Source: Clostridia bacterium
Lineage (GTDB): Bacteria > Bacillota > Clostridia > Oscillospirales > CAG-272
Direction of reading: 5' to 3'
Assembly: GCA_017473085.1 (NCBI GenBank)
Contig: JAFUNF010000020.1
Span: forward strand, 21,523-85,522
Length of the DNA: 64,000 bases
Shown here: piece after piece, positions 47,047 through 57,716 of the stretch
How the letters are laid out: the number at the start of each line of letters is the position of its first letter
Numbering within the stretch: position 1 is the stretch's first letter
Notes under the pieces: model-generated
Database searches by the model: none
What the model saw: only the letters and a program-made list of their open reading frames with translations
What the model was told of the DNA's origin: nothing
Translations under genes and position numbers: made by a program

Positions 47047-48066
47047 TTATTTAGTTGACCTTTTTTCTTTTGGTGGGGTGTCGCCTTCGTAGTTTTTTTG
47101 CATACTGTTTGCAAAATCACGAAGCTGGTCGCGCATTTCTTGTGGCTCGATTACGGTTGCCTTGTGGCCGAAGCGAATTGCCCAACGCAAAACGTCCTCA
47201 CGGCTGGCTCTTGTGCGAATTATAATTCGTGAGTCACGAAGTCCGTTTATTCTAAAATTCTTGCCGAAGGCATCAATTACCTCGCCAATCAGGTCCTTGT
47301 CGATGGCAAGGGTTATATCAAGCATTTCCCCTGATAGCATATAGGGGTGAGAATATATGTAGTCGTCTATTTTCTCATCTGCCCTTTTTCGTGGGGACGC
47401 AAGAATACAAAGGCTTGTTATTTTATCAACTCGGTAGCCATTTAGCTCCTCTCGTTCGTTGCTTGCAATTAAGTAGTAATGTCCGTGTGACATAACTAAA
47501 CGATAGGGGCTTACTACTACCCTTTCAATTGGGTGAAGGGCTTTGTCTATGCCATAGTCGTTTCTTACAAATTCAACCTTCAGGTTTTGTGACATAGCCT
47601 CGTTTAGTTGGGCTATGGTATTGAAAAGGTCCTTGTTGTCGCTTTTGTCAAAGGTATCAAGGGTATGTATGTTTCTTGCCTCGGATTTAAAGTGCTTACT
47701 TGTCAGGCTACATAGCTTATTTATTATCTTTCTTGTGCTCCCTGTGTCTATACATCTGCTTGCTAAAACAAGGTCGATAAGCAAGCACAGCTCTGCCTCG
47801 GTTAAGTCCTTGCCACAGGAGTCGTAATAAGCTCCCTTTGTGGTTTTGAAAACTCCTATGCCACTTGACTCTAAGTCTCCAAGATAATTACTAATTGCCT
47901 TTCTTTCAAGTAGAATATTATACTCTACCTCAAGTAAATTGGAGATTTCAGCTTGGGTCAGCATTTTCGCCTCGGAAAGCTTGCCACTTGGAGAGGGTCT
48001 TGTATGCTTTTTTAAAATATGAAAAATTCTTAGGCACGCCATTCGCTTAGTTTCATTGCTTGCCAT
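47047..48066 (-). CDS. WYL-domain transcriptional regulator (wHTH-WYL-WCX architecture)
   Basis: 339 aa with an N-terminal wHTH (..LTQAEISNLLEVEYNILLERKAISNYLGDLESSG..). The central WYL-like strand motif is ..VVVSPYRLVMSHGHYYLIASNEREELNGYRVDKITS... The C-terminal segment is ..RWAIRFGHKATVIEPQEMRDQL... Transcribed divergently from the helicase operon. Confidence 0.85.
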   Translation of the reverse strand: MASNETKRMACLRIFHILKKHTRPSPSGKLSEAKMLTQAEISNLLEVEYNILLERKAISNYLGDLESSGIGVFKTTKGAYYDSCGKDLTEAELCLLIDLVLASRCIDTGSTRKIINKLCSLTSKHFKSEARNIHTLDTFDKSDNKDLFNTIAQLNEAMSQNLKVEFVRNDYGIDKALHPIERVVVSPYRLVMSHGHYYLIASNEREELNGYRVDKITSLCILASPRKRADEKIDDYIYSHPYMLSGEMLDITLAIDKDLIGEVIDAFGKNFRINGLRDSRIIIRTRASREDVLRWAIRFGHKATVIEPQEMRDQLRDFANSMQKNYEGDTPPKEKRSTK

Positions 48067-48390: not shown

Positions 48391-51300
48391 ATGAAAGGCT
48401 TTGACGACATTCAAAAAATGCTAAACGACTTCTACTCCAGCTTAGACACCCTAAAGGCTGGCTACGAAAAGGAGGAGGAAGAAAAGGCACAGAAGGAAGA
48501 GGTACAGGAAATTGACGAGAAGGCGCAGGCAGAGGCACTTTTACAAGAGGAGCAAAAAAGAAAGGAAAACCTTGAAAAGCTTCGTCTTGAGGACCAACGC
48601 AGAAGCCTTGAAAACGAAGAAAGGCTTAAGGCAGAAAGAAAGGCACTTGACGAGCCACCTATTTTCTTCTCCGCAGGACCAATTGATTTTGACGATTATA
48701 GCTTTGACGATTTTGACGACAAGCCCTCTGACCAGCTTGTAAAGGAGCAAAACGGTCCTTATGATTTTAGTGACTTTGATGATTTTGACGATATTGACAA
48801 TTCTTCTATTACAGATATGCCCGACGATTTGGGTGGCGATTCCTCTGACAAGGTATCAGAGCCTGTCAGTGATAAGGTTGACAAGGACACCCCCGACCAA
48901 GACAAGAGTGGTAATGATGACAAGGACGACAAGAGTGACAAGGTAGACGAGGACGAGCCTAAGGAAAAGAAGCCTAAGTCTATTTTTGACATTCTCAAAA
49001 ATAGAAAGCCTGAAGAAATGGACGAGGAAATTAACAAGAAGGTTGACCCTCTTTATCACAGTGACGACTCCACCTCTGCTGTTTCGGAAAATGACGAGCT
49101 ACTTAAGAAGTGGCAAAGAGAAATTGACCAATGGAAGAAGAATATTATTGACGAGGGTGGCTTTGTTGACGATGGCAAGCTTGTGCAAAAGGTTACCTGT
49201 CACGATATTCCAGACGATTGGAAAAACAGATACGTTGATGATGAAAGAGCCAACATTCACATTGAGGACCTTTCTACTGCTCTTTTGCATTGTCTTAATA
49301 TTCTTGGTGTAGTTGATATTGAATATATTGCTACAATTACTAAGCTTTCCTATGGCGATGTTATAAACGGTCTTAAGGGTGCTATTTATCAAAACCCTAT
49401 GAAATGGGGCGAATGCTTTTTCCGTGGCTGGGAGCTTAGTGACGATTATCTTTCAGGTAATATCATTCACAAATGGCGTGTGGCTATGGAGGAAAACGAC
49501 AAGTATCACGGCTACTTCAAGGACAACGTAGATGCTCTTGAAAGGCTTATTCCTGCATCTCTTCGCACTAAGGACATTTACGTAACCCTTGGCTCTCCTT
49601 GGATTCCACCTGACATTATTGACGAATTTATTTACTATTTAGTTGGCGAGCCTGTGGCAAGACACGAATCTATTACTACTAAGTATGACGAGCATTCAGG
49701 TCTTTGGGAAATTCCTTACAAGTCAAGATTTAAGCGTGGCAAGCATTCTGTTAAGGCCTCCTCTCTTTATGGTACGGCTGATATGGATATGCTTCATATT
49801 ATTGAAAACACTCTTAATATGAAAACTCTTGTGGTTTACCAAAAGGTGAACAATGCCTTTTCAAAGAAGGGTGAGGTTTTCGTGCCTGATCAAAGCAAGA
49901 CTCTTTTAGTTCTTGAAAAGCAACGTATGCTTATTGAGAAGTTCCAGAGCTGGATTTGGGACGACGAGGAGCGTAAGGAAAGGCTACAAATTCTTTATGA
50001 AACTCGCTTTGGTGCTCACCGTAAAAGAGAGTTTGACGGAAGCTTCCTGACCTTCCCACAAATGAACCCTAATGTTACTCTTTTTCCATTCCAAAGAAAT
50101 GCAGTTGCAAGAATTATTTTGACCCCTAATACCCTTCTTGCCCATGATGTTGGCTCAGGTAAGACCTACGTTATGATTGCCTCAGGTATGGAAATGAGAA
50201 GAATTGGTATTTCCAAAAAGAATATGTACGTTTTGCCAAACAACCTGATAGGTCAGTGGAAAACTATCTTTATGGAAATGTACCCCTCGGCTAACATTTT
50301 AGTTGTTGAGCCTAAGGATTTTGTCCCAACCAAGAGAAACGCAACTATGGCTAAGATTAAGAGCATTGATTACGATGCAATTTTAATGGCATATAGCTGT
50401 TTCGATATGATACCTCTCTCACTTGAGTATTACGAGAAGGAATATGAAAGGGTGCTTCAAAAAATTAAGCAATCCCGTGCTACCTTTGAATCAAAGGCTT
50501 CTGTTGACAGAAAGCACAAGTCCCTGCTTGCAAGCCTTGAAAAGCTGAAAAAGGAGCTTGAGGAAAACGAAATGAAGATTACCTTTGACCAGCTTGGTAT
50601 TAATACTCTATTCGTTGATGAAGCCCACAATTATAAAAACGTGCCTATTGACACAAAAATCACAAGAATACTTGGTATTTCCAAAAATGGCTCTCGCAAA
50701 TGCTCTGATATGCTTGACAAGGTTAAGTGTGTGCAGAAGCAAAATGGTGGTCGTGGTGTTGTATTTGCAACAGGTACGCCTATTACCAACTCCATAACCG
50801 ACGCTTACGTTATGCAATCCTACCTACAAAGTGGAGAGCTTGCACTTCTTGGTCTTACAAGCTTTGACTCCTGGGTTGGTATGTTTGCTGAAAAATCTAC
50901 TGACTTTGAGGTTGACGTGGACACTACAAACTTCCGTATGGCAACAAGATTTGCAAAGTTCCACAACCTACCAGAGCTTACCTCTATTCTTGCATCTATT
51001 GCAGACTTCCACGCAGTTGACAAAACTGGTGGTATGCCTGACTTCAATGGCTATACAGACAGTGTAATCAGCCCTACCCCTGCATTTAAGGATTATCTTA
51101 AGGAAATTTCCTCCCGTGCAGATGATGTACGTAGTAGGCGTGTACCACCTGACGTTGATAATATGCTTAAGATTACCAACCACGGAAGGCTTGCAGCCCT
51201 TGACCTTCGTTTAGTAGATAATACTGCTCGCTTTACCCTTCAATCCAAGGTGGCAAGATGTGCTGAGTGTATTATTGATACCTATAATTCCTCCAGCAAA

Positions 51301-52413
51301 ACTAAGAGTGCACAGCTTGTTTTCTGTGACATCTCAACACCTAAGATAGGCTTTAATATGTATGACGAGCTTGCTCGCTTGCTTGTTTTTGCAGGCGTGC
51401 CAAGAGAGGAAATTGCCTTCGTTCACGATGGCACAACCGACAAAAAGCGTGATGCTCTATTCCAAGATGTAAGAGATGGCAAAATCAGAGTTTTGATAGG
51501 CTCTACTGCTAAGCTTGGTATGGGTGTAAACGTACAGGAAAGGCTTATTGCAATACACCACCTTGACGTGCCGTGGCGTCCTGCTGATATGGTGCAGAGA
51601 GAGGGTCGTATTCTAAGACAGGGTAACACCAGCGAAAAGATTTATATTTTCAGATACGTAACTGACGGAAGCTTTGACGCTTATTCCTGGCAGTTGCTTG
51701 AATCTAAAGCAAGATTTATTGCACAATTGCTTGGTGGCTCTATGAAGATGCGCTCAGGCTCTGACGTTGACTCTGCCGTTCTTAACTACGCAGAGGTTAA
51801 GGCGCTTGCTATTGGTAACCCACTTATCAAGGACAGAGTTATTGCATCTAATGAGCTTGAAAAGTTCTATATTCTTCAAAGGGAGGCTCTCCTTGAGCGT
51901 GACAAGATGAATGTTGAGCTTAGCGAGCTACCTAAGAAGATTGACAGGCAAAAATCTCTTATCGAAACCTGTGAAAGAGATATTCTCTTTTATAGCAACA
52001 ACAAGCGTGAATATAGTCCTGAGGACAAGGAAAAAATCCGTTCTGATATTGCTAATTCATTAAGAGCTAACGTTTTGAATCCTGAGGAAACTGAGGTATT
52101 AACCTATCAAGGCTTCCAAATATTCGTTCCTTCCTTTATGCGTAAGGAGCAACCCTGCGTTTATATCAGAAACAACGGAAAATACATTGTTGATATGGGC
52201 TCTGAGTCCAGCATCTTAAAAAGAATTGATGAGTTCCTTGATAACTTTAGCGAGGTGCTTGCAAGCTATAAGGCAAGCTTAAACGCTTACTATGTAAGAC
52301 AGAGTGAATTAAGCTCAGCACTTGCAAACAAGATAGGCTATCAGGACAAGATTGAGGAGCTTCAAGAAAAGCTTAAGGAAATTGATGAAAGGTTAGGAGT
52401 TAAACATGAGTAA
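48391..52413 (+). CDS. Large SNF2/SF2-family helicase-like protein with acidic disordered N-terminus
   Basis: 1340 aa with a TAGGAGG RBS. SF2 motifs: I AHDVGSGKTY, II LFVDEAHNYKN, III FATGTPITNS, VI QREGRILRQGN. A conserved-looking pre-helicase region contains LGSPWIPPDIIDEF. I see no methyltransferase NPPY/DPPY motif. Confidence 0.9.
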   Translation: MKGFDDIQKMLNDFYSSLDTLKAGYEKEEEEKAQKEEVQEIDEKAQAEALLQEEQKRKENLEKLRLEDQRRSLENEERLKAERKALDEPPIFFSAGPIDFDDYSFDDFDDKPSDQLVKEQNGPYDFSDFDDFDDIDNSSITDMPDDLGGDSSDKVSEPVSDKVDKDTPDQDKSGNDDKDDKSDKVDEDEPKEKKPKSIFDILKNRKPEEMDEEINKKVDPLYHSDDSTSAVSENDELLKKWQREIDQWKKNIIDEGGFVDDGKLVQKVTCHDIPDDWKNRYVDDERANIHIEDLSTALLHCLNILGVVDIEYIATITKLSYGDVINGLKGAIYQNPMKWGECFFRGWELSDDYLSGNIIHKWRVAMEENDKYHGYFKDNVDALERLIPASLRTKDIYVTLGSPWIPPDIIDEFIYYLVGEPVARHESITTKYDEHSGLWEIPYKSRFKRGKHSVKASSLYGTADMDMLHIIENTLNMKTLVVYQKVNNAFSKKGEVFVPDQSKTLLVLEKQRMLIEKFQSWIWDDEERKERLQILYETRFGAHRKREFDGSFLTFPQMNPNVTLFPFQRNAVARIILTPNTLLAHDVGSGKTYVMIASGMEMRRIGISKKNMYVLPNNLIGQWKTIFMEMYPSANILVVEPKDFVPTKRNATMAKIKSIDYDAILMAYSCFDMIPLSLEYYEKEYERVLQKIKQSRATFESKASVDRKHKSLLASLEKLKKELEENEMKITFDQLGINTLFVDEAHNYKNVPIDTKITRILGISKNGSRKCSDMLDKVKCVQKQNGGRGVVFATGTPITNSITDAYVMQSYLQSGELALLGLTSFDSWVGMFAEKSTDFEVDVDTTNFRMATRFAKFHNLPELTSILASIADFHAVDKTGGMPDFNGYTDSVISPTPAFKDYLKEISSRADDVRSRRVPPDVDNMLKITNHGRLAALDLRLVDNTARFTLQSKVARCAECIIDTYNSSSKTKSAQLVFCDISTPKIGFNMYDELARLLVFAGVPREEIAFVHDGTTDKKRDALFQDVRDGKIRVLIGSTAKLGMGVNVQERLIAIHHLDVPWRPADMVQREGRILRQGNTSEKIYIFRYVTDGSFDAYSWQLLESKARFIAQLLGGSMKMRSGSDVDSAVLNYAEVKALAIGNPLIKDRVIASNELEKFYILQREALLERDKMNVELSELPKKIDRQKSLIETCERDILFYSNNKREYSPEDKEKIRSDIANSLRANVLNPEETEVLTYQGFQIFVPSFMRKEQPCVYIRNNGKYIVDMGSESSILKRIDEFLDNFSEVLASYKASLNAYYVRQSELSSALANKIGYQDKIEELQEKLKEIDERLGVKHE

Positions 52414-53518
52414 GGAACAAGCTACAATTCCCTCTCTATCCATTGAAAAAATGATAGGAGAGCTTACAAGCATTTATACAAAGGTAATCAACAAGGGCTT
52501 ATCACCAAAGATAGTCCCCTCAGTTATGCTGTGGGGACCTCCTGGTGTAGGTAAGTCACAGGCAGTAAGACAGATTGCTAAGGAGCTTGAATACTCCACA
52601 GGCAAGCGTTGTCACGTTACTGACGTAAGACTTTTGCTATTTAACCCAATTGATTTGCGTGGTATTCCTACTGCAAATGAGGACAAAACCCTTGCTATTT
52701 GGCTAAAGCCACAAATTTTCCAAATGGACCCAAGTGACAGAGTTATAAATATTCTATTCCTTGATGAAATTTCGGCTGCACCTATGTCGGTGCAGGCAGC
52801 TGCCTACCAGATTACTCTTGACAGAGTTGTTGGCGAGCATAAGCTACCTGACAACTGTATTGTTATTGCGGCAGGTAACAGAGTTACAGATAAGTCTGTT
52901 GCCTTTAAGATGCCTAAGGCACTTGCTAACCGTCTTTGCCACATTGATGTTAAAGGCTCAAATGATTCTTGGGAAAGATGGGCCGTTAAGAATGGTATTA
53001 ACGAGCGAGTTATCGGCTTTATTGCATTCCGTCCTAACTACCTAATGGGCTTTGATGCAGGTAATGATGACCTTGCCTTTGCAACACCACGTTCTTGGGA
53101 AATGGTAAGCAATATTCTAAATTTGAATGGTGGCGATGTTAAGACCTCCTATTCCTTGATAGCAGGCTGTATTGGTACAGGTGCGGCAGTTGAGTTCAGC
53201 TCCTTCTGTAAGCTTTACGACAAGCTACCAAGAATTGATGAAATTTTCGAGGGCAGATACTTCAACGTACCTAAGGAGCCTGATATTCTTCACGCACTCA
53301 TTTCCTCAATGACTGCTTATGCAAGAGAATACAAGCACGATTTAAGAAGAATTTCTAACTCAATCAGCTATGCTGTGGGTATGCCTGCTGATTTTTCGGC
53401 AGTTTTGTTCAAAAATTACTGTGCTATTGAAAAGGACTACAAGGAATTTTTAATGAAGATTCCAGAGTTCTACAAGTGGTTTAGCACAAAGGGGGCACAC
53501 TTCAATGGCATTATCTAA
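52406..53518 (+). CDS. MoxR-like AAA+ ATPase (AAA_5 type)
   Basis: 370 aa with Walker A WGPPGVGKSQ, Walker B ILFLDEISAAP, sensor-1 region VIAAGN and ..ALANRL... It overlaps the helicase gene by 8 nt. Confidence 0.9.
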   Translation: MSKEQATIPSLSIEKMIGELTSIYTKVINKGLSPKIVPSVMLWGPPGVGKSQAVRQIAKELEYSTGKRCHVTDVRLLLFNPIDLRGIPTANEDKTLAIWLKPQIFQMDPSDRVINILFLDEISAAPMSVQAAAYQITLDRVVGEHKLPDNCIVIAAGNRVTDKSVAFKMPKALANRLCHIDVKGSNDSWERWAVKNGINERVIGFIAFRPNYLMGFDAGNDDLAFATPRSWEMVSNILNLNGGDVKTSYSLIAGCIGTGAAVEFSSFCKLYDKLPRIDEIFEGRYFNVPKEPDILHALISSMTAYAREYKHDLRRISNSISYAVGMPADFSAVLFKNYCAIEKDYKEFLMKIPEFYKWFSTKGAHFNGII

Positions 53519-54443
53519 GGAGGAGCTTCGCGAATATTTTATCAAGCTTTGCCACGCCAGAAACAGGGTTATATTTGAAAGTAGTCTGCTTGGCATCTTG
53601 CTTGTTCAATTTAAGCTCGCTGTTGATGAAAATTGCGATACTGTCTATTTTGACGGAGAAAGAATTGCCTTTTCTCCTAAGCTTTTAGACGAATTGGAGT
53701 TAGACGAAATTTCTCACGTATTAGTACACGAGATGCTTCACTATATCAAGGGACACTTCTCTATTGAAAGAAAGGAGCGTGCAATTCTTGACCTTGCCTG
53801 CGATATGGAGGTTGAGTCCTTAATATATGAATTGAATAGTCATTGCTATCATGGTGTTGGTGGCTACGTAATTCCATATAAGCTTCCTGGTAGTAGGTAC
53901 GTTTCTGCCTTTTCCGTTGATGATGCTTACGATACGTTAAAGAGTCAAAAGGAAATTGCCCTATACAAAAGCTTTGATAACCATAGTAAGTGGGAAAATG
54001 CAAAAAAATCTTGCCAAAGTCAAATACATATGAAAAGGGCTATTGCCTTAGTTCACAAGAGCCCCTTTACAAAGCTACCCCCATCATTAGAGAGTCTTTG
54101 TGATATGGAGCTTGACACCTGTGACATTTGGGAGGGCTTGAGTGAGCCTGTACCCTCGGTTGAGGAGATTTTTGAAGGCAACTGTAAGGCTGTGCCAAAA
54201 AGTCTTGATACACTTTTAGCACTTATCTATCAAATGGTACAGTATGCTAAGGAATGTAGGCACGATTTAAGAAAAATTTCTAACTCAGTTAGCTATGCTT
54301 GTGGTATGCGTGCTGACTTTGCATCAATTTTGTTCAGAGACTACTGTTATATTGAAAAGGGCTACAAGGACTTCTTAATGAAGATTCCTGATTTTTATAA
54401 ATGGTTTAGTACAAGGGGGGCACACTTCAATGGCATTATCTAA
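53505..54443 (+). CDS. Chimeric protein: HExxH (DUF2201_N-like) domain fused to a copy of the AAA ATPase C-terminal domain
   Basis: 312 aa. Residues 1-~165 parallel the N-terminus of 54430..55809 (HVLVHEMLH). Residues 219-312 parallel residues 277-370 of 52406..53518, with 63 of 94 identical by hand alignment. 14-nt overlaps at both ends. Confidence 0.8.
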   Translation: MALSKEELREYFIKLCHARNRVIFESSLLGILLVQFKLAVDENCDTVYFDGERIAFSPKLLDELELDEISHVLVHEMLHYIKGHFSIERKERAILDLACDMEVESLIYELNSHCYHGVGGYVIPYKLPGSRYVSAFSVDDAYDTLKSQKEIALYKSFDNHSKWENAKKSCQSQIHMKRAIALVHKSPFTKLPPSLESLCDMELDTCDIWEGLSEPVPSVEEIFEGNCKAVPKSLDTLLALIYQMVQYAKECRHDLRKISNSVSYACGMRADFASILFRDYCYIEKGYKDFLMKIPDFYKWFSTRGAHFNGII

Positions 54444-55809
54444 GGAAGAGCTTCACAAGTATTTTATAAGATTGACTCAATCTCGCGCTCGTCTTCTTAT
54501 TGAGTATCCCTTTTATGGAGTACTACTTACTCACGTTAAGCTATCTATTGACGAGGATTGCGAAACTGCCTATACAGATGGCATGCGAATTGCCTTTTCT
54601 CCTGCCTTTCTTGACGATTTAAGCGATAGCGAGGTTGACTTTGTAATGATGCACGAAATCCTTCATATAGTGTTAGTCCACTGTTACAGACAAAAGCCTG
54701 ACCACGAGCTTTTTAATATTGCCTGTGATATAGTTGTAAACTCTAACATTCTTAAATCTAAGGATATGGACAATGGCTCTATTACTCTAAAAAAATATGG
54801 AGAATCAATGCACTTAACTCCTGACAACAAGGAGGGCTATGAGTTTACCGCCGAGGAGGTTTACGATATGCTTGTTAAAAAGCAAGGCTCGTCTAACTCT
54901 CAAAGTAGAGGCAAAAACGGTCAAAAGAATAAGCAAGGTCAAGGACAAGGTCAGGGTCAGGGTCAAGGTGACGATGGTGACGATGACGATGCAAGTGCCA
55001 ATAGTGGTAAGAGTGGCAAGGATAAAAACAAAAAGGGTGGTAAAGGCACTGGCAAATCCAAGAGAAAGCCAGGTGCTTGTCCTGACGAGTTTGATAGCTT
55101 TGACAGTCACGGCAAGTGGAAGCGAGACGGCGAGGCTGATGAGGAGCTTAGCGACAAGTGGACAAAGATTTTAAACGATACTGCACAGGTAATTGAAATT
55201 ACCGAGTCTGACAAGGGTCAAGGCTCTATTCCTCTTTGTGCACAAAGGCTTCTAAAGGAAATTCGCAATCCACAGGTGGATTGGAGAACTATTTTAAACG
55301 ACTTCGTTCAAGAGGATATATGCGATTACTCCTTCTCTCCTCCAGACAGGAGATTTGGAGATTCCGATTTCTTCCTGCCTGACTTTAACGAGAAGGAGGA
55401 CAGAGTTGAAAAAATCCTATTTATGATGGACACCTCTGGCTCTATTACTGATAAAATGCTCGCCTCTGCCTTTTCTGAAATAGTTGGTGCTATTAATCAG
55501 TTTGGTGGTAGATTTGAGGGCTATTTAGGATTTTTCGATGCCGCGATTTACGAGCCTGTACCCTTTGCTTCAGTTGATGATGTTTTGAAAATCCGTCCAC
55601 GAGGTGGTGGTGGTACTAATTTCCATATTATTTTCAAATATGTAAACGAGAAAATGATAGAGGACCCACCTGTTTCCATTATTATTTTAACTGACGGATA
55701 TGCAGATTTTCCAAAGGAATCGGAAGCGAATGGTATTCCTGTTTTGTGGCTCATCAATAACGATGAGATTACTCCACCTTGGGGTAAAATTGCCCGTATC
55801 AAGCTATAA
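54430..55809 (+). CDS. HExxH metallopeptidase-like + vWA domain protein (DUF2201_N/DUF2201-like)
   Basis: 459 aa with MMHEILHIVLVH. It has a low-complexity linker (GQGQGQGQGQGDDGDDDD, then K-rich). The C-terminal vWA has the MIDAS-like motif FMMDTSGSI and later IILTDGYAD. Confidence 0.88.
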   Translation: MALSKEELHKYFIRLTQSRARLLIEYPFYGVLLTHVKLSIDEDCETAYTDGMRIAFSPAFLDDLSDSEVDFVMMHEILHIVLVHCYRQKPDHELFNIACDIVVNSNILKSKDMDNGSITLKKYGESMHLTPDNKEGYEFTAEEVYDMLVKKQGSSNSQSRGKNGQKNKQGQGQGQGQGQGDDGDDDDASANSGKSGKDKNKKGGKGTGKSKRKPGACPDEFDSFDSHGKWKRDGEADEELSDKWTKILNDTAQVIEITESDKGQGSIPLCAQRLLKEIRNPQVDWRTILNDFVQEDICDYSFSPPDRRFGDSDFFLPDFNEKEDRVEKILFMMDTSGSITDKMLASAFSEIVGAINQFGGRFEGYLGFFDAAIYEPVPFASVDDVLKIRPRGGGGTNFHIIFKYVNEKMIEDPPVSIIILTDGYADFPKESEANGIPVLWLINNDEITPPWGKIARIKL

Positions 55810-55818
55810 GGAGGCACA

Positions 55819-56601
55819 ATGAAAAATATTTTATTTAAGAAAAGTAAATATTTGAATATTGCTTTTGCTTGTGTTGGTGACAAATGTCACGAATCTTGCA
55901 AGAAGGCACTTAAATTGGTTAGCTATCATATTGATACTGTTTTGTCAGATGACAACGCTTCTTCCTCTATTTCTCTTCTTCTGTATAAAAGGATAGGAGC
56001 AAAGAAAATTGTTAATGATTTAAAAATTTATGATGCTATATTTTTTGTAGCTGACGTAAACGACGAGGAAAGTGTTAATCGTTGTCTTGAAGCAAGTGAG
56101 CAGTTGGAAAAAGAGAGTGCTTGCTCCTGTATTTTCCTTTCCGAAAATAAAAGGCAAATTGAATCCTCCTTATCGGTTGCTGTGATTAAGGAGAGTGAGC
56201 TTTGTCACACTATTGCAAGACTATTCTCTGCTTGCAATTTAAGTGATGCTCTTGAAAGGGAGCTTAGTCTTGTGCTTGACCTTTCAGAAAAATGCACCTC
56301 TATTTTCAAGTGGGAGCTTTTGTTAAAATCCCTTGGGAGTGGTTGGGAAAAGCGTCTTGACAATATTGACTTAGATGGTGCAACACAGGTCCTTGCAGTA
56401 ATAAAATCTAAGGAGTCTTTATCACTTGAAGCCTATGATGAGCTTTCCTTTGCTCTTATGTCAAGATTAGGTGACGGGATTGATATTTCCTTTGAAACTA
56501 TTCAAGATGAAAAGCTAAAGGGCACTGCTATGCTTAGCATATATTCAGGATATCCGAAAAAGGTGCTTGAATTGGATAGAACAAATTTCACAAAAAATTG
56601 A
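55819..56601 (+). CDS. Degenerate FtsZ/tubulin-like protein (260 aa)
   Basis: AAGGAGG RBS, 9 nt after the vWA gene. Collinear resemblance to FtsZ: [15 protein letters not shown] vs [23 protein letters not shown] vs [21 protein letters not shown] vs [34 protein letters not shown] vs [23 protein letters not shown]. The GGGTGTG loop is missing. The CDS call is firm; the fold call is an inference. Confidence 0.7.
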   Translation: [260 protein letters not shown]

Positions 56602-56714: not shown

Positions 56715-57716
56715 ATGAATTATAATTTACGTCCAGAAAGCATGGAGCGTATCACTACTCCCGAGCTTGCTAACAGCTTCATCGAGGAGCAGGTTAAGGC
56801 AATAAGAAAGCAGGTTGGAGACAGTAAGGTTTTGCTTGCTCTTTCTGGTGGTGTTGACTCAAGCGTTGTGGCTGCTCTTTTGATTAAGGCAATTGGTAAG
56901 CAATTGATTTGCGTTCATGTTAATCACGGCTTAATGCGTAAGGGCGAAAGCGAAAACGTTATTGAGGTATTTAGAAACGGACTTGATGCTAACCTTATTT
57001 ACGTTGATGCAACTGACAGATTCCTTGGTAAGCTTGAGGGTGTTTCTGACCCTGAAAGCAAGCGTAAGATTATTGGTAAAGAATTTATAAACGTTTTTGC
57101 TGACGAGGCAAGAAAGCTTGAGGGAGTTGAATTCTTAGCTCAGGGTACTATTTATCCCGACATTCTTGAAAGCATTAAGAAGGACGAGGGCAAGGAGGCA
57201 GTTAAATCTCACCACAACGTTGGTGGTCTTCCAGAGGACCTTGAGTTTGAGCTTGTTGAGCCACTTATGCTTCTTTATAAGGACGAGGTAAGAGTTGTTG
57301 GCGAGGCGCTTGGTCTTCCCCATGCTATGGTTTACCGTCAGCCATTCCCAGGTCCTGGACTTGGTGTAAGATGCTTAGGTGCTATTACAAGAGACAGACT
57401 ACACGCACTTCGCGAGGCTGATGCTATTCTTCGTGAGGAATTTGACTTAAATGGTCTTTGTGAAAAGGTTTGGCAATACTTTGTTGTTGTGCCTGATTTA
57501 AAGAGTGTTGGTGTAAGAAACGAAAGCCGTTACGTAGGCTGGAGTGCTATTATTCGTGCAGTTAACACCACTGATGCAATGACTGCAACTATTGAGGAAA
57601 TTCCTTACGCAGTTCTTCACAAGATTACTAATCGTATCGTTACAGAGGTTGAGGGAATCAACCGTGTGCTTTACGACTTAACTCCAAAGCCAACTGGCAC
57701 AATCGAGTGGGAATAA
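56715..57716 (+). CDS. guaA: GMP synthase ATP-pyrophosphatase subunit (GuaA C-terminal half only)
   Basis: 333 aa with the PP-loop LALSGGVDSSV and motifs ..QGTIYPD..ES.., ..HHNVGGLP.., ..LVEPL..L.KDEVR..G..LG.. It ends ..PKPTGTIEWE like full-length GuaA. There is no glutamine amidotransferase domain upstream. Confidence 0.9.
   Translation: MNYNLRPESMERITTPELANSFIEEQVKAIRKQVGDSKVLLALSGGVDSSVVAALLIKAIGKQLICVHVNHGLMRKGESENVIEVFRNGLDANLIYVDATDRFLGKLEGVSDPESKRKIIGKEFINVFADEARKLEGVEFLAQGTIYPDILESIKKDEGKEAVKSHHNVGGLPEDLEFELVEPLMLLYKDEVRVVGEALGLPHAMVYRQPFPGPGLGVRCLGAITRDRLHALREADAILREEFDLNGLCEKVWQYFVVVPDLKSVGVRNESRYVGWSAIIRAVNTTDAMTATIEEIPYAVLHKITNRIVTEVEGINRVLYDLTPKPTGTIEWE

Follow-up and report, generated by a model that had tools for sequence, protein, structure and literature searches.

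Pairs of MoxR-like AAA+ ATPases and proteins with a von Willebrand factor A (vWA) domain are chaperone/cochaperone couples, and a phage version carries a metallopeptidase domain at the N-terminus of the vWA protein (PMC7824862; PMC7159879). Iyer et al. (2021) described the jumbo-phage couple of a MoxR-like ATPase and a metallopeptidase-vWA protein and predicted that it is a chaperone-cochaperone pair (PMC7824862), and Kaur et al. (2020) reported that where a peptidase domain is fused to the vWA component of a MoxR-vWA conflict system, it is often catalytically inactive (PMC7159879). Here we analyzed a 64,000-nucleotide (nt) stretch of DNA from a Clostridia bacterium (GenBank assembly GCA_017473085.1, contig JAFUNF010000020.1, positions 21,523 to 85,522; hereafter the window), in which an SNF2-type helicase, a MoxR-like AAA+ ATPase and a metallopeptidase-vWA protein are encoded as a triad, and in which an additional gene, made of pieces of both partners, lies between the ATPase gene and the vWA gene. 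Chimeric genes formed at the junctions of tandem duplications are familiar from Sdic in Drosophila and from the duplication join-point fusions of Salmonella and E. coli genetics. An original prediction, made from the letters of the window, held that the additional gene arose by an old tandem duplication across the gene boundary and has been retained under selection. We find that a single junction-spanning duplication produced the gene and that the chimera has been selectively kept, and we consider it probable that its product is a non-catalytic accessory subunit.

Anatomy of the chimeric gene and its junctions

The locus consists of three co-oriented, overlapping open reading frames (ORFs) on the forward strand, as are all features below unless stated otherwise. 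The first encodes the MoxR-like AAA+ ATPase of 370 amino acids (aa), parent 1 (52406-53518; Pfam AAA and AAA_3 above cut-off; phrog_1297, 4e-93), the second the 312-aa chimera (53505-54443), and the third the 459-aa metallopeptidase-vWA protein, parent 2 (54430-55809; Pfam DUF2201_N, 6.2e-38, and the vWA-like DUF2201, 7.2e-14; phrog_1314, 1.7e-83). Both boundaries are 14-nt stop/start overlaps, with ATG codons at 53505 and 54430. A 31-mer, GGGGGCACACTTCAATGGCATTATCTAAGGA, occurs exactly twice in the window, at 53491-53521 and 54416-54446, with 0 copies expected from shuffles. In the first copy, a Shine-Dalgarno-like run (AAGGGGG) stands shortly before the overlap of the AAA stop codon with the chimera ATG; in the second, such a run accompanies the overlap of the chimera stop codon with the vWA ATG. 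The 31-mer search and the ORF calls exactly reproduced the pair of junctions, 925 nt apart, and the two start codons on which the original prediction was built. The same 925-nt spacing holds on either side of the junction, in direct repeats at 53281-53542 and 54206-54467 (79% nt identity) and at 53601-53695 and 54526-54620 (71%), and nt similarity between the copies reaches its left limit about 285 nt 5′ of the start codons, at AAA codon 270-272. Both parents are full length and conserved. The locus therefore has what defines a junction-spanning tandem-duplication chimera: colinear paralogous segments, intact parents, and a gene that joins the 5′ part of the downstream gene to the 3′ part of the upstream gene.

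The N-terminal part of the chimera, residues 1-211 (53505-54137), is a zincin-like DUF2201_N domain (Pfam, 7.4e-12) that corresponds to residues 1 to about 285 of the vWA protein minus a linker. The chimera scores 45.9 bits against PF13203 (DUF2201_N), where the gathering cut-off is 23.2, over profile positions 5-99 of 271, and in BLASTP its residues 1-107 are 46% identical to residues 1-107 of the vWA protein (E=3e-29). Aligned by hhalign, the chimera orthologues and the vWA family match colinearly over chimera residues 1 to about 210, the FDxHxKW and DW motifs included, with a gap at the low-complexity linker of the parent (residues 152-215, 54883-55074), which consists of QG, D and KG runs, varies in length among homologues and is missing from the chimera. 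A Foldseek search of viral models superposed the chimera on phage metallopeptidase-vWA proteins over 210-230 columns, at a root-mean-square deviation of 4-5 Å and with E values down to 1.4e-5. The homology of this part had been predicted, and its hand count of 43 identities in the first 84 residues was exact on recount, but the predicted extent of about 165 residues was too short, as both hhalign and Foldseek carry the match to about residue 210.

The C-terminal part, residues 212-312 (54138-54443), is a copy of the C-terminal helical domain of the ATPase (residues 270-370, 53213-53518), with 65 of 101 residues (64%) identical in BLASTP (E=4e-44); the earlier hand count of 63 in 94 also proved exact. 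In the AlphaFold2 model of the ATPase (predicted local distance difference test, pLDDT, 80) three parts can be told apart, an alpha/beta core (residues 36-183), lid helices (186-273) and a separate helical domain (277-366), the last of which follows the lid helix 258-273 and is modeled at a pLDDT of 93-96. Full-length Foldseek matches to this model were three-domain AAA+ proteins (RFC and ORC subunits among them) and the best-superposing matches were NorQ, while a sequence search of the PDB with the AAA profile returned Walker-A-level matches only. Helices 219-309 of the chimera model reproduce the helix series of the AAA C-domain at an offset of 58 residues, and nearly all residues of that domain that are invariant in the family are kept. 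The chimera has no AAA match in Pfam and does not include the P-loop core, the Walker A motif (GPPGVGKS, 52535-52558), the Walker B motif (LFLDE, 52754-52768) or the lid, since the matched AAA residues lie past the lid. As predicted, it also lacks the vWA domain: PF09967 did not match it, and tblastn with the vWA C-domain matched the downstream gene alone.

The AlphaFold2 model of the chimera is a compact two-part fold with a pLDDT of 87.7 and a predicted TM-score (pTM) of 0.88, and because this pTM exceeds what is expected for independently placed halves, the model suggests that the two halves pack together. Compared with the PDB by Foldseek, the chimera model gave no significant match, only marginal ones to minigluzincins. 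The chimera also carries a motif of its own, YHGVGGYVIPY (53847-53879), which is nearly invariant among chimeras (Ser replaces the first Gly in one lineage) and differs from the parental sequence in the alignment and in hhalign.

Two further features of these proteins were observed. Cysteines 170, 227, 251 and 281 of the chimera are invariant in all clusters, and three of them lie in the AAA-derived domain. At the positions of C227 and C251 the AAA parent in the window has tyrosine (Y285 and Y309), and C281 is also Cys in the AAA copies of the clade, with no conservation of Cys at this position in the AAA family at large; the four invariant cysteines could form a new metal or redox site. In the ATPase, residues 77-102 (52634-52711) have the lowest model confidence, with pLDDT below 50, and coincide with the most conserved stretch of the family (invariant D73-T89). 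From the model, this segment is probably a pore or insert loop that becomes ordered on partner binding or oligomerization.

Origin and distribution of the chimera

An identical chimera protein was found on four contigs from different sources, and full-length homologues were found at 65%, 58-59% and 50% identity, each at 100% coverage. Chimera orthologues occupy the same operon slot in at least five other independently assembled lineages (at least six with the window), and the contigs of the full-length homologues share the order WYL-domain regulator, SNF2 helicase, AAA, chimera, vWA, a 260-aa gene and a guaA-C-like gene. On two short Logan contigs (L086 and L087) the chimera comes right after the AAA C-terminus, and L086 also reaches the start of the downstream vWA gene. 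Among 80 loci from species-representative Clostridia genomes, the chimera was present in one, a goat-caecum metagenome-assembled genome (L006), and the other 79 (AAA identity ≤79%) have the plain order AAA to vWA with the same short overlap. The close relative L088, whose vWA protein is 74% identical to that of the window, matches the window in gene order, down to a homologue of the 260-aa gene, and has no chimera. An exhaustive profile search of 1.84 billion cluster representatives returned one full-length match, the chimera cluster itself, all others covering the N-half only or the C-half only. No chimera loci were found in JGI metagenome contigs scanned with patterns derived from the profile and from YHGVGGYVIPY, and no phage or IMG/VR contig with the chimera motif was found when IMG/VR was scanned with the motif pattern; prevalence and pseudogene frequency rest on the ENA, NCBI and Logan matches. 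The survey of homologous operons thus shows a lineage-specific gene, and the chimera is confined to a small clade of uncultured Clostridia from ruminant and other animal guts.

Its presence in separate assemblies shows that the gene is not a product of misassembly. An exact 31-nt repeat could nevertheless mislead assemblers or seed gene conversion, and one could propose that the similarity of the copies reflects misassembly, conversion or recurrent independent duplications. To this proposal we give next to no credence: one and the same protein occurs on the four contigs of different origin, diverged orthologues occur in separate assemblies, and the chimera copies are monophyletic instead of being grouped by genome. 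The exact 31-nt junction identity is a property of the window only. In the relatives the identity extends over 17-20 nt, and L088 has a single junction that is nearly identical in sequence to the junctions of the window. Since the relatives have 17-20 nt and L088 nearly the same junction, the 31-nt identity is, judged from these sequences, an ancestral constraint of dual coding and of the ribosome-binding site (RBS) and not the mark of a recent event. Recent gene conversion as the source of the 31-nt identity was considered and rejected on the same observations.

Neighbor-joining trees were made of the C-domain and of the N-domain. The C-halves of the chimeras were monophyletic (bootstrap 96-99), as were the N-halves (100), and each chimera clade, inside the local family, had as its sister group the parental copies of its own genomes (88 for the C-domain and 96 for the N-domain), with a joint clade that excludes the relatives without a chimera at the same support (88 and 96) when L088 was left out of the trees. 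When L088 was added, support for the joint clade fell to 57 and 70, and the L088 genes were placed weakly with the parental clade (62% and 53%). The trees show a single duplication that was inherited vertically. That the chimera halves form one clade with the parents of their own genomes rules out repeated duplication, large-scale gene conversion and the acquisition of a fusion from a foreign source. Together with the left edge of the repeat at AAA codon 270-272, this bears out the prediction of an old tandem duplication over the gene boundary.

In the ancestor of the clade, then, one tandem duplication of about 1.1 kb ran from about AAA codon 270, through the stop/start junction, to about codon 285 of the vWA gene. 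Both breakpoints were in frame, and the AAA breakpoint fell at a domain boundary, so that a complete domain was transferred. The product is a third, translationally coupled gene between intact parents, with the same RBS and overlap signals at each end, and it encodes the N-terminal zincin-like domain of the cochaperone joined to the whole C-terminal helical domain of the ATPase. The chimera has since been inherited vertically under purifying selection, evolving several-fold faster than its parents.

A separate observation concerns two of the lineages with near-identical operons, L002 and L006. They differ sharply in a segment that covers the chimera C-domain and the start of the vWA gene (8634-9250 in L002 and 8733-9350 in L006): their chimera C-domains share 70% aa identity at a synonymous divergence (dS) of 0.80, the first 107 codons of their vWA genes have a dS of 0.29, and the rest of the operon has a dS of ≤0.09. 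This pattern points to an allele imported by recombination across junction 2.

Selection, the zincin motif and a proposed role

The ratio of non-synonymous to synonymous divergence (dN/dS, omega) was estimated between the window and L001, the least saturated pair. We found that the chimera, with an omega of 0.245 [95% bootstrap confidence interval (CI) 0.15-0.36], is constrained less than the ATPase [0.059 (CI 0.033-0.092)] and the vWA protein [0.118 (CI 0.079-0.165)]. The omega of the chimera reached a maximum of 0.43 over 1000 resamples and never reached 1, and over all pairs it was 0.10-0.31, with dS saturated in the pairs other than window and L001. By three-point dN branch lengths, the chimera copies have accumulated 3-12 times more non-synonymous change since the duplication than the parental copies. 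These results indicate purifying selection on the chimera that is weaker than on its parents, as expected for a neofunctionalizing or partly released duplicate.

Relatives of the window do lack the chimera, including the close, syntenic L088, and the gene evolves quickly and has a degenerate HExxH motif in most copies, all of which could be read as a neutral relic that is open by chance and slowly decaying. We regard this as highly improbable: at least six lineages keep an open frame of 310-312 codons, in the same slot and at dS values from 1 to saturation, dN/dS is far below 1 and did not reach 1 in any bootstrap sample, and 117 columns, counted among 7 chimera cluster sequences, are invariant, with the chimera-specific motif nearly so. 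Additionally, the overlapping start and stop signals are preserved in the relatives, and we agree with the original prediction that the frame and both overlaps are intact and that the gene was retained under selection.

The zincin motif of the chimera, HEMLHYIKGH (H75, E76, H79 and H84; 53727-53756), corresponds to the HEILH motif of the vWA protein (54652-54681). All 121 parental homologues examined have HExxHxxxxH. Among the chimeras, H71, H75, H79, H84 and D100 are invariant, and the catalytic Glu is kept in the window (HEMLH) and in the P0007 lineage only; E76 is replaced by Gln, giving HQxxH, in five of seven orthologue clusters. The claim that HExxH is retained therefore stands for the window and the P0007 lineage and fails for the remaining clusters. 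The HQ lineages fall in a single subclade of the N-domain tree (bootstrap 94-95), so one Glu-to-Gln change suffices to explain them. With the His and Asp residues kept, the catalytic base lost and purifying selection continuing, the pattern argues that peptidase catalysis is dispensable and that binding or scaffolding, not proteolysis, is maintained.

A different reading takes the chimera to be an active, retargeted metallopeptidase, in which the AAA-derived domain would tether the zincin to the ATPase ring or its client as a protease arm independent of the vWA domain. The complete HExxHxxxxH plus D100 of the window allele and the P0007 lineage is compatible with such an enzyme, as are the fold of the N-part, which is that of phage metallopeptidase domains, and its weak resemblance to minigluzincins. 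The Gln substitution that occurs in most clusters under ongoing purifying selection is found in none of the 121 parental homologues, however, and no peptidase activity of DUF2201_N has been demonstrated in the searchable literature, where a search for DUF2201 found nothing relevant. We consider an active peptidase unlikely but worth taking seriously.

Our own reading is that the chimera is most likely an accessory or regulatory subunit, without ATPase activity and without a vWA domain, of the SNF2/MoxR-like AAA/metallopeptidase-vWA machine. We favor this role because the protein lacks an ATPase module and a vWA domain with its metal ion-dependent adhesion site (MIDAS), keeps the His and Asp residues and the invariant residues of the AAA C-domain, and mostly has Gln for the catalytic Glu. 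Because nearly all of the family-invariant residues are retained, the chimera can plausibly bind the partner of the AAA C-domain. The AAA-derived domain would dock where that domain normally docks, and the N-domain would present or occupy the binding surface of the cochaperone N-domain. The chimera would in this way modulate or compete with the AAA-cochaperone cycle, and could possibly bridge the partners; the fusion may mimic in cis a contact formed in trans between the parental proteins. Domain III of RFC-type proteins mediates the assembly of the ring, and by analogy the AAA C-domain may have such a role here.

Several points weigh against the accessory-subunit reading or against the evidence for it. 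That the chimera binds any partner at all is something we infer, and the high pTM of its model rests on six paired chimera rows in the alignment. The copy in the window itself keeps HExxH and so may still be an active peptidase. Saturation of dS in most comparisons makes omega rough, and the pairwise NG86 estimates are blind to episodic positive selection. The position of L088 would fit either an earlier split or a loss of the chimera, which recombination between the repeats could have caused, at supports of 53-62% that, with the long chimera branches, limit how the event is timed relative to L088. Finally, no PADLOC or NCBIfam model places the triad in a known system.

A bolder version of the accessory-subunit reading, which we think improbable, would make the chimera a natural "Rosetta-stone" fusion that fixes the docking of AAA C-domain and zincin in cis and serves as a pseudo-enzyme decoy or threshold-setter in a WYL-regulated SNF2/MoxR/metallopeptidase-vWA system against mobile elements. 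If it were true, the C-domain allele swap between L002 and L006 would reflect an arms race.

Operon neighborhood and comparison with described systems

The first gene of the triad, at 48391-52413, encodes an SNF2-type helicase that resembles the DarB helicase module (Pfam Helicase_C and SNF2-rel_dom; phrog_10089 "DarB-like", 1.4e-232), and such a gene lies directly 5′ of the AAA gene in essentially all of the 80 loci. The first ~290 residues of this protein (48391-49260) are acidic and of low complexity and share 67-76% identity among close relatives, versus 90-96% for the helicase body. Divergent from the operon, on the reverse strand, is a gene for a WYL/WCX-domain regulator (47047-48066; Pfam WYL 1.2e-08 and WCX 1.3e-06; PADLOC WYL 6.6e-25), which is syntenic in L001, L002 and L006; in 33 of the 80 loci a WYL regulator is encoded no more than 7 kb away. 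Downstream of the vWA gene is the gene for a 260-aa protein, p260 (55819-56601). In the tblastn survey its homologues were limited to the chimera clade and L088, where the protein has 228 aa; it is missing in L007 and L009, in which the guaA-C-like gene comes right after the vWA gene. A family search with p260 gave nothing significant, the sole match being FtsZ_C at E=0.025, below its cut-off. The idea that p260 is a further duplicate of the operon genes was rejected, as no similarity to them was found. The following gene encodes a stand-alone GMP-synthase C-terminal/PP-loop protein (56715-57716; GMP_synt_C, 1.6e-35). Because this neighbor is syntenic in L007, L009 and L088, it marks the locus as a stable chromosomal site and not a mobile island. 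With PADLOC v2 models the SNF2 protein had only generic helicase-domain matches (DrmD and DpdE, among others) and the ATPase weak ones in its P-loop region (residues ~13-63, with mad8 extending to 101). Neither PADLOC nor NCBIfam assigned the chimera, the vWA protein or p260.

The locus records an unusually clean, datable birth of a new bacterial gene by a boundary-spanning duplication. Syntenic relatives still show the state before the duplication, and selection has preserved the product long enough for 35-50% divergence. For work on MoxR-vWA systems, the chimera suggests that the added C-terminal domain found in this family of ATPases works in concert with the cochaperone's zincin-like N-domain, and that zincin-like catalysis is not what selection preserves in the new protein. 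The general impact is moderate, given the narrow distribution of the gene in few uncultured gut Clostridia.

The parents are, like RavA-ViaA, CbbQ-CbbO, NorQ-NorD and CoxD-CoxE, adjacent and coupled genes for a MoxR-like AAA+ protein (AAA_3, NorQ fold) and a vWA protein. Compared to RavA-ViaA-type pairs, the ATPase described here is extended by a C-terminal helical domain of ~100 aa and the vWA protein by an N-terminal zincin-like domain, and the pair is almost always preceded by the DarB-like SNF2 helicase; among described MoxR-vWA pairs we found none with a third gene built from pieces of both partners. The phage couple (PMC7824862; phrog_1297 and phrog_1314) has the same two-parent architecture, and its proteins can be superposed with the N-part of the chimera. 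The vWA protein has homologues at ≤36% identity in 558 phage records. The proposed role of the phage pair as a virion-assembly chaperone is a prediction. The locus in the window is chromosomal and syntenic across species. The MoxR-vWA "ternary" conflict systems likewise join a third component to a MoxR-vWA core, and their often inactive peptidases parallel the Glu-to-Gln chimeras (PMC7159879). Their third components (VMAP, iSTAND and FtsH-like), however, are unrelated proteins, whereas here the extra component is built from the core genes, and NCBIfam and PADLOC gave no effector or membership signature of the ternary systems at this locus.

The N-part shares with minigluzincins (selecase and jannalysin) and with M48/SprT-like zincins an HExxH helix and a small beta-sheet, at chimera residues ~37-110. 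The likeness is marginal, with minigluzincin Foldseek matches at E of about 0.7 and a probability of about 0.8 and with Pfam M48 and SprT matches sub-threshold or weak, and the catalytic Glu is not conserved among the chimeras. In mechanism, the chimera corresponds to Sdic and to the join-point fusions of Salmonella and E. coli, with duplication end points in different genes, an in-frame fusion and intact parents. Unlike those, it is a natural bacterial case in which the duplication spans a stop/start overlap, both coupling signals were inherited and the gene has persisted through speciation. We conclude that the chimera adds a new domain architecture to a type of system already described, and that the mutational event behind it is likewise of a familiar type.

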